DNA of 17,844 nucleotides from a virus (IMGVR_UViG_2534682338_000008:1-17844), one strand, 5' to 3'. Counted from the stretch's first letter, positions 7,301 to 7,561 are shown. The notes: a model not told the origin generated them from the sequence alone. Numbers and translations: made by a program.

Positions 7301-7561
7301 GTTTTTGTGTGGTGCACTACCGCCATAAATGACAGGTAGGCCACTGGTTGGACTGGTTGATCGCTGTAATGCACTTGCTACATCGGAATATCCGGCTAGT
7401 CCCCCTACTTGTCCCAGCATACTGGTAGCTACTAATGATAGTGCACCTGCTGCCGCTCCCCAATATGCCGCTACTGTTAATGTTGCCCCACCCGTATATA
7501 CGGCAGCTACAACCATCACGGCAGTTATTAGAGCACCAAAAATACTATTTTGACTCCCCAT
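4358..7561 (-). CDS. central tail tip / host-specificity protein, lambda J-like, with fibronectin type III-like domains and an unusual hydrophobic N-terminal extension
   Basis: About 1067 aa from the first ATG at 7561 (AGGAG 9 nt upstream); the ORF track starts at a GTG at 7570. Size, position after the L/K-like genes, FN3-like segments ([19 protein letters not shown]...YDFAVSAYN) and a C-terminal region resembling the lambda J C-terminus ([13 protein letters not shown]). Confidence 0.8.

Follow-up and report, generated by a model that had tools for sequence, protein, structure and literature searches.

A phage J-like tail tip protein begins with a hydrophobic segment that is probably related to the C-terminal part of lambda gpI

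In IMGVR_UViG_2534682338_000008:1-17844, a 17,844-nucleotide stretch of prophage-like viral DNA (the window), the gene for a protein that resembles the central tail fiber J of phage lambda starts with about 60 codons for a hydrophobic, Ala/Gly/Val-rich segment. Why would a tail tip protein begin this way? The initial annotation of this locus noted a resemblance to the hydrophobic C-terminal part of lambda gpI and suggested either an I-J fusion or a membrane-active segment. We propose that residues 1 to ~105 of the J-like protein are likely to be a cis-encoded and covalently attached equivalent of this part of gpI, which would plug the lumen of the tip, enter the outer membrane when the tip opens, and contribute strands to the hub. 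(The part of gpI after the ubiquitin-like (Ubl) domain was named TAPI-C by Iyer et al. (PMC1779556); we also call it gpI-C.) The gene and the parts of its N-terminal region are:

4358..7561, minus strand: J-like baseplate hub/central fibre gene (1067 amino acids; phrog_31, Pfam, and AlphaFold2 (AF2) fold matches)
7570..7574, minus strand: Shine-Dalgarno sequence AGGAG, 8 nucleotides 5' of the ATG at 7559-7561 (as seen in the sequence itself)
7385..7561, minus strand: uncharged Ala/Gly/Val-rich segment, residues 1-59, a gpI TAPI-C-like hydrophobic module by composition and run length
7478..7543, minus strand: first hydrophobic helix, residues 7-28 (aligned to helix H1 of gpI, 102-123; the local hhalign alignment is of residues 5-28 with gpI 100-123)
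7397..7471, minus strand: second, less hydrophobic Gly/Ala-rich helix, residues 31-55 (putative counterpart of helix H2 of gpI, by hydropathy and the extended hhalign alignment)
7343..7384, minus strand: polar linker with an invariant RSTSP, residues 60-73 (counterpart of the gpI plug/loop by position only)
7250..7342, minus strand: beta-strand region GLPVIYGG..., residues 74-104 (putative counterpart of the C-terminal strands of gpI, VLPVLYGEMRVGSRVVSQ)

The mechanically delimited open reading frame (ORF) is 4358..7570, and its first possible start is a GTG at 7570. From the sequence, we assigned the start to the ATG at 7559-7561. The peptide quoted in the initial annotation corresponds to residues 8-58 in the ORF 4358..7561 (minus strand), and the coordinates 7380..7561 that were given for the segment are codons 1-60 of the gene, so the hydrophobic start is where it was said to be. 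The protein is a baseplate hub and central fibre of the lambda gpJ type, with hub domains HDII-HDIV, FN3 domains, and a C-terminal tip fibre. Its matches include phrog_31 ("central tail fiber J", E = 3e-52) and the Pfam domains Phage_Tail_Tip, fn3, and Phage-tail_3, and its C-terminal fibre matches 9ze4_N and T1 fibre chains, which are solved J-type fibres. An AF2 model of residues 1-500, made on a 12-sequence alignment, has a predicted template modelling score (pTM) of 0.68, and its hub part is usable. The closest fold, according to Foldseek, is T5 pb3 (7zqp_b, E = 1.8e-20). The model also matches lambda gpJ (8xcg, 8k35, and 8iyk; E about 1e-14), RcGTA (6tba_8A, E = 7.9e-13), and DT57C, Chi, JBD30, and T1 (overall, E = 1e-13 to 1e-20).

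None of the first 59 residues is D, E, K, R, or H, while the second-longest stretch of the protein without charge has 26. Given that 18% of the remaining residues are charged, about 0.008 runs of 59 uncharged residues would be expected per protein. Ala, Gly, and Val make up 55% of residues 6-58 but 24% of the rest of the protein. Across the entire protein, 19-residue Kyte-Doolittle windows exceed 1.6 only if they are centred on residues 12-23. The maximum at the N-terminus (1.98) is within the first helix, and a weaker second hydrophobic stretch lies around residues 35-47 (1.3-1.4). AF2 predicts a helix at residues 29-47, with very low confidence, and strands at 77-79, 94-98, and 100-104. In the linker, the alignment columns of R67, S68, S70, and P71 are invariant.

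Is the segment related to gpI? Lambda gpI matches PF06805 at residues 14-97. In the virion, residues 101-223 comprise the helices H1 and H2, a plug at 159-175, and strands that are added to the gpJ sheets, and TAPI-C is located in the lumen of the tip beneath the C-terminus of gpH (PMC11101478, PMC10721106, PMC12617516). H1 and H2 vanish upon LamB-induced opening, and their entry into the outer membrane has been proposed (PMC11101478, PMC10721106, PMC12617516). We compared a profile of 17 J N-termini to a profile of 13 diverse gpI proteins from phage records, and hhalign gave E = 2.7e-6, with a probability of 88.5%. Under a permissive threshold for the alignment, window residues 1-115 match gpI 95-222 colinearly; the pairwise identity of the window's protein to gpI is about 23% over the aligned columns. 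The score of 42.4 is about 7 standard deviations above composition-preserving shuffles, in which columns were permuted separately within the hydrophobic and the polar parts (17.1 ± 3.5, maximum 28.6, n = 150). Each half contributes: the polar tail alone scores 23.3 (E = 5.7e-4; shuffles 8.9 ± 1.7, maximum 13.9, n = 100), and the hydrophobic half alone scores 18.7, above all 100 shuffles (10.6 ± 2.2). Thus, the resemblance to the hydrophobic C-terminal part of gpI that the initial annotation had noted is borne out by alignment. Also, a hidden Markov model (HMM) of the J N-terminus places 9 of the 13 gpI proteins above all 124 decoys, which were ORFs from the window (the top hit was the gpI of Carrot, E = 3.8e-4).

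The features that are shared with TAPI-C (about residues 98-223 of lambda gpI; 8IYK, 8K35, and 8XCG) are an uncharged stretch of ~59 residues, a polar linker, and the strand G-x-(V/L)-P-(V/I)-x-Y-G, with order and spacing the same in both. The uncharged run is 59 residues in the window, 59 in lambda gpI (99-157), 58 in Vc1, and 62 in HK97 and Carrot, so that the gpI proteins range from 58 to 62. The TAPI-C strand motif, G-x-(P/V/L)-(V/I)-P-(L/V/I)-x-Y-G-(E/G), which occurs about 30-40 residues past the hydrophobic stretch, is present in the window (SGLPVIYGG at 73-81, compared to GNVLPVLYGE in lambda and GYPVPLPYGD in Vc1). The "aromatic-TGG-A-S/T-L" motif of the first helix is common to the gpI proteins of Vc1, Carrot, and HK578. 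BLASTP aligns residues 7-28 of the window's protein with lambda gpI 102-123, which is the right place, and it aligns the N-terminus of the J-like protein of phage DCP80 with the strand motif of gpI (VLPLVYGEQRVGS vs. VLPVLYGEMRVGS, E = 2e-5). We conclude that the J-like N-terminus is probably homologous to TAPI-C, as judged from sequence comparison, although this is not proven.

G2 of the window's protein aligns to gpI G96, so the J-like protein starts at the boundary between Ubl and TAPI-C. The idea of an I-J fusion therefore stands for the TAPI-C half of gpI, which is represented, but not for gpI as a whole: the Ubl half (PF06805) is absent. Where would lambda J begin? In a comparison of window residues 91-190 to residues 1-110 of lambda-type J proteins, hhalign put the two in the register that was expected, with window Q112 opposite Q22 of lambda J (LKSVLLNSTPVL on the lambda side), but weakly (E = 0.018, probability 2.6%). 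In a longer hhalign comparison to lambda J, only later hub regions align. This is suggestive only of a lambda J start that corresponds to about window residue 90-110.

The N-terminal segment is conserved as protein. We compared codons to a prophage homologue in E. coli WGI31CT, which is 76% identical. Of codons 1-60, 30 are identical, 23 have only synonymous changes, and 7 have non-synonymous changes (88% amino acid identity and 79% nucleotide identity). Because the changes are mostly synonymous, the segment must be translated and under purifying selection. Codons 61-110 have 15 synonymous changes and one non-synonymous change, and with 98% amino acid identity, they encode the most conserved part of the protein. 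Close relatives of the J-like protein (60-82% identity) are found in assemblies from E. coli, Salmonella, and Enterobacter; all of them begin with MG(K/S)xxGG(I/F)F and continue with the same hydrophobic stretch, and this start is kept down to 38% identity. All full-length relatives that we found (38-82% identity: P0001-P0006 and P0012-P0022) have the segment at their extreme N-terminus. In E. coli phage DCP80, which has the same order of tip genes as the window, the J-like protein is 25% identical and also opens with a hydrophobic segment, with an uncharged run of 58 residues. Vibrio phages V6Aob and 2.058.O have a shorter, single hydrophobic helix, then the same "P-V-Y-G" strand, and they keep the upstream DUF6950 gene. 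When we searched 1.84 billion representative proteins exhaustively with a profile of the first 140 residues, only 20 proteins came back; these were J-like N-termini, fragments, or repeats, and the long ones (1010-2324 amino acids) all match at their extreme N-terminus. A hydrophobic N-terminus is the normal state of this lineage, not an oddity. The initial annotation held that its reading would fail if the segment were a normal part of J N-termini in this group. All full-length relatives do carry the segment, but this is not an argument against homology to gpI.

The relatives of the DNA are few. The nearest relatives of the tip module (4358..9200), at about 76% identity, are chromosomal prophages in 2 of 5,426 complete E. 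coli genomes. A collection of 50,697 phage records contains no close isolate: megablast with the tip module had no match there, and the collection has only distant relatives at the protein level. The WGI31CT prophage (L019, 116235-132334) adjoins alkA and a truncated yegD. The copy in Enterobacter roggenkampii (L018) looks degraded, with an insertion sequence (rve) nearby and the J gene broken into ORFs of 670, 202, and 176 amino acids.

If the J-like protein carries its own TAPI-C, then what happened to the rest of gpI, and to gpK? PF06805 matched neither the J-like protein, nor its first 120 residues at E ≤ 10, nor any other ORF of the window that was scanned. An HMM for Ubl, built from the 13 gpI proteins, had no match among all 125 stop-to-stop ORFs of the window (best E = 1.1). 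There is also no room for a separate I gene, as the initial annotation had noted. The gene upstream overlaps the start of the J-like gene by 17 nucleotides, and there is no intervening ORF:

7545..7964, minus strand: DUF6950 gene, 139 amino acids, at the position of gpK and RcGTA g14 (Pfam PF22262, E = 3.3e-8)

This gene had been called K-like. The label fits its position, but the protein is a DUF6950 protein without JAB, and its match to the gpK family is insignificant (hhalign E = 0.14). Neither Prok-JAB nor NLPC_P60 matches the DUF6950 protein, even at E ≤ 10; lambda K matches both JAB and NlpC/P60 domains. Within the insignificant match, FGTNDCN of DUF6950, which holds its conserved cysteine motif G-x-NDCN, aligns with HGVTDCY, the catalytic-cysteine motif of gpK. 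Lambda encodes the PF06805 domain and the JAB domain of gpK (plus NlpC/P60), while in the window no Ubl domain is present, and the DUF6950 partner has no JAB domain and no detectable NlpC/P60 domain. The joint absence of Ubl and JAB fits the proposal of Iyer et al. that JAB releases TAPI-C from Ubl, although it does not prove it. In DCP80, V6Aob, NVP 2.058.O, and the prophages of Enterobacter and E. coli, the gene directly upstream of the J-like one also encodes a DUF6950 protein. The position of DUF6950 upstream of J is found in five distant lineages (also at L001 5463..5879, L016 1992..2399, L017 1909..2340, and L018 7604..8008). The histidine position is not conserved in DUF6950 (LIMAIVV in the window and NNHHIAI in NVP 2.058.O). 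A single-sequence AF2 model of DUF6950 had a predicted local distance difference test (pLDDT) of 42 and was unusable.

The arrangement in the window can be compared to several tip systems. In lambda, as in the window, the coding sequence of the module lies directly upstream of the J hub domains, but gpI is a separate protein of 223 amino acids, and in the window the module is part of the J polypeptide. Fusions of TAPI and J in some prophages were noted by Iyer, Burroughs and Aravind in 2006 (PMC1779556). These also combine the functions of gpI and J in one polypeptide, but they were described as having the whole TAPI with Ubl, while the window has only the TAPI-C part. In Aeromonas phage Avs-1, the N-terminal region of gp23 is a gpI-like tripod in the virion lumen (PMC13612043); by its description, this would be the same architectural solution as the one that we propose. 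The "megatron" proteins g15 of RcGTA and gp16 of roseophage R4C have an N-terminal hydrophobic iris/penetration domain (residues 1-46), which closes the channel and has been proposed to form a pore in the outer membrane (PMC7296036, PMC10276861). The initial annotation assumed that J proteins normally begin with a soluble domain, but this is true of lambda only: the megatrons begin with a hydrophobic segment (PMC7296036, PMC10276861). Like the window's protein, the megatron has a hydrophobic and predicted membrane-active segment at its extreme N-terminus, ahead of the first hub strand. Also, both are large hub/fibre proteins with a similar hub fold, and both are encoded after a distal tail protein, a hub, and a small gene at the "peptidase position." They differ in that the uncharged run is 36-41 residues in megatrons instead of 59, and in RcGTA and R4C the hub has a 4Fe-4S cluster and the neighbour is annotated as a cell wall peptidase instead of DUF6950. 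In T5, the plug of pb3 closes the cone of the hub, contacts the C-terminus of the tape measure protein, and refolds to become an anchor in the outer membrane (bioRxiv 10.1101/2022.09.20.507954). Although pb3 is the best fold match to the window's hub and its plug also closes the cone, this plug is an insertion within HDII that becomes a beta hairpin, and not a set of hydrophobic helices at the N-terminus.

What we observed is how the segment is built, that it is conserved, how its sequence relates to gpI-C, and which fold the hub has. From there, we propose a mechanism by analogy to lambda, RcGTA, R4C, and Avs-1, whose structures suggest that the segment would be lumenal and would insert into a membrane. 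The tip would be assembled as a trimer, and its three J N-termini would lie inside the lumen of the cone, where they would close the channel below the tape measure protein's C-terminus. (That the tape measure would sit on this plug is suggested by the structures of lambda, T5, and RcGTA.) Strands 74-104 would belong to the hub. Binding to the receptor would open the cone and release the hydrophobic helices. The released helices would then insert into the host's outer membrane, anchor the tip, and line an exit for the tape measure protein and the DNA. A membrane-active role, which the initial annotation had raised, is favoured by the published work on gpI and on the N-terminus of the megatron (PMC11101478, PMC7296036). 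Our proposal would also explain why the lineage needs neither the Ubl domain of gpI nor the JAB peptidase of gpK: the module is already part of J.

Several results weigh against this proposal. Residues 1-74 have a pLDDT of about 25, so the helices and their location lack a confident model. BLASTP of the window's protein against lambda gpI is weak (E = 0.14). An HMM of gpI-C gives the window's protein a whole-sequence E of 13 and a best-domain E of 0.095, with high composition bias. An N-terminal HMMER profile found no gpI or megatron chain among PDB sequences, only chance matches, and none of the 20 proteins from the exhaustive search has the gpI architecture. At 88%, the hhalign probability is below 95%, and low-complexity hydrophobic sequence accounts for part of the score. 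The similarity to the iris domain of the megatron is insignificant (hhalign E = 0.08-0.13). Finally, membrane insertion is a proposal even for lambda and RcGTA, and the window's protein is known from its sequence alone.

So we also considered other explanations. The J-like N-terminus might have arisen by convergence, as an independent plug or penetration element like the iris of the megatron, and its likeness to gpI-C might reflect constraints that are shared by Gly/Ala-rich membrane-active hairpins. The function would then be as we propose, and only the evolutionary link between I and J would be wrong. The insignificant profile-to-sequence scores from HMMER, which are dominated by composition bias, are consistent with convergence. 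So are the gene order and the N-terminal position, which are those of the megatron, and the Vibrio phage relatives with just one short helix. However, the linker and the G-x-P-V/I-x-Y-G strand match gpI independently, and far above shuffles. The J-like N-terminus and gpI align colinearly, their uncharged runs are equally long, and they share an aromatic-TGG-A-S/T-L turn motif. The reversed alignment keeps the character of the helices, yet it scores 17.6 instead of 42.4. And the megatron N-terminus scores below gpI against the J family: with five megatron N-termini only, hhalign gave E = 0.082 against the J family and E = 0.05 against gpI, both colinear but insignificant. A word-indexed search found five relatives of R4C. 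We consider convergence unlikely.

It is more improbable still that the N-terminus is an assembly anchor, which would tether J to the inner membrane of the producing cell or to a chaperone, would nucleate assembly of the tip without any role in penetration, and might be removed later. For a long time, lambda gpI was considered an assembly protein that is absent from the tail (PMC1779556), and DUF6950, whose cysteine motif aligns (insignificantly) with the catalytic cysteine of the NlpC/P60 domain of gpK, could be a processing enzyme. But cryo-electron microscopy and mass spectrometry place gpI-C in mature lambda virions (PMC10721106, PMC11101478, PMC12617516), and the N-termini of the megatrons and of the Avs-1 protein are in the virion lumen (PMC7296036, PMC10276861, PMC13612043). 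Also, the segment is joined to the hub by codons 61-110, and their 98% amino acid identity fits a permanent structural element. The N-terminal position and the hydrophobicity might instead suggest a Sec or Tat signal peptide, or that J truly starts downstream and that the segment lies outside the protein. We rejected both ideas as very improbable, given the residue composition, the start site, and the pattern of codon substitutions. With no charged residue among the first 59, there is no positive n-region, and a hydrophobic run of ~53 residues far exceeds an h-region of 7-15 residues. A strong Shine-Dalgarno sequence precedes the ATG at 7561, the frame is continuous, and the substitutions are biased towards synonymous ones. 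The MG(K/S)xxGG(I/F)F start is kept at 38% identity, and independent gene calls in E. coli and Enterobacter use the same Met.

Our proposal of a gpI-C equivalent in cis bears on how siphophage tips are closed and how the outer membrane is breached. These tasks have been assigned to gpI in lambda, to the megatron N-terminus in RcGTA and R4C, and to the pb3 plug in T5. That hub or fibre proteins can carry an N-terminal plug or penetration segment is already documented, TAPI-J fusions were noted in 2006, and the principle is published, so the practical impact of our finding is modest. A J protein with a gpI-C-like module in cis, and without Ubl or JAB, supports the view that there is one device in several versions. 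More tentatively, and as a reading that is rather less likely than not, we suggest that this family is a sequence link between gpI and N-termini of the megatron type: lambda gpI might be a detached hub N-terminus, mature gpI might be TAPI-C as released by gpK, and Ubl and JAB might be an add-on for delivery and processing. (In gpI, G96 is the conserved C-terminal glycine at which, according to Iyer et al., JAB would cleave (PMC1779556).) If this is correct, then the Ubl/JAB assembly device was needed only once the plug was encoded separately, and the lineage is a natural version of the lambda tip plug that lacks the Ubl domain and the JAB peptidase. The window's system would also be simpler for testing the device, with the plug function separable from Ubl/JAB processing within a single gene. 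For annotation, the lesson is that a phage without a gpI gene may carry the module fused to J. For example, phage Miki was reported to have no gpI analogue (PMC13611946).

Other searches with these sequences returned little. A word-indexed search with lambda gpI-C had 894 matches; the 120 that were listed are all close lambda-type gpI proteins, and none of these 120 has the length of J. They were too uniform to serve as a gpI profile, which was made from the 13 phage proteins. A PHROGs scan of residues 1-100 of the J-like protein had no match. A Pfam match of the first 120 residues to SseC (E = 0.024, below the cut-off, in a scan at E ≤ 10) was treated as hydrophobic noise. The top decoy in the HMM test of gpI proteins (E = 0.41) was a plus-strand ORF of 74 amino acids, 7329..7553, which is antisense to the hydrophobic segment; GC-rich codons for Ala and Gly most likely gave rise to it, and we do not consider it a gene.

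Upstream of DUF6950 lie other tail genes:

7949..8572, minus strand: hub protein, 207 amino acids, counterpart of gpL and RcGTA g13 by position (phrog_2048 tail protein, E = 1.5e-26)
8574..9128, minus strand: distal tail protein, 184 amino acids (phrog_1302, E = 2e-19; weak DTP-pb9_B-dom match)
9195..11411, minus strand: tape measure protein, 738 amino acids (position, length, and similarity to an 804-amino-acid ORF of DCP80)

The order of distal tail protein, hub, DUF6950, and J is the g12-g15 order of RcGTA and roseophage R4C (PMC7296036, PMC10276861). The DCP80 ORF of 804 amino acids lies just upstream of that phage's distal tail protein gene. The hub protein has a weak Pfam match to Phage_phiJL001_Gp84_N (E = 0.0015, below the cut-off), and its E. 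coli orthologue is annotated as DUF2163. It has just two cysteines (VTCFD and DYCQA) and therefore no four-cysteine 4Fe-4S cluster as in lambda gpL and the hubs of RcGTA and R4C.

The tail tube protein gene (about 12167..12895) is split by a group I catalytic intron at 12510..12734 on the minus strand (Rfam RF00028, 84 bits, with the gathering threshold at 50; E = 1.9e-20 over the full length of the model). Exon 1 ends with FNSAYNR, and the splice sites are approximate. The tail tube gene of E. coli WGI31CT (L019 13043..13501, 152 amino acids) is uninterrupted and has YNSAYNRKLLGTKSVPD. A free-standing gene for a SegE-type GIY-YIG endonuclease (1863..2300, minus strand; Pfam PF19835, E = 1e-16) adjoins the lysis genes and has orthologues in the E. 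coli and Enterobacter relatives; it is a homing-type nuclease within the same element as the group I intron, which has no ORF. An ORF of 97 amino acids at 674..967 (minus strand), near the phage lysozyme gene at 2339..2791, has a weak Pfam match to GTA_holin_3TM (E = 1.4e-4, just below the cut-off), which is a second, faint link of this element to gene transfer agents (GTAs). Upstream of the tail tube gene, and apart from the tip module, is a gene for a fibre protein of 1211 amino acids (12968..16603, minus strand) that has an S74 intramolecular chaperone domain at its C-terminus (PF13884, E = 9e-13); its E. coli orthologue is annotated as "pyocin knob domain-containing S74 family peptidase."

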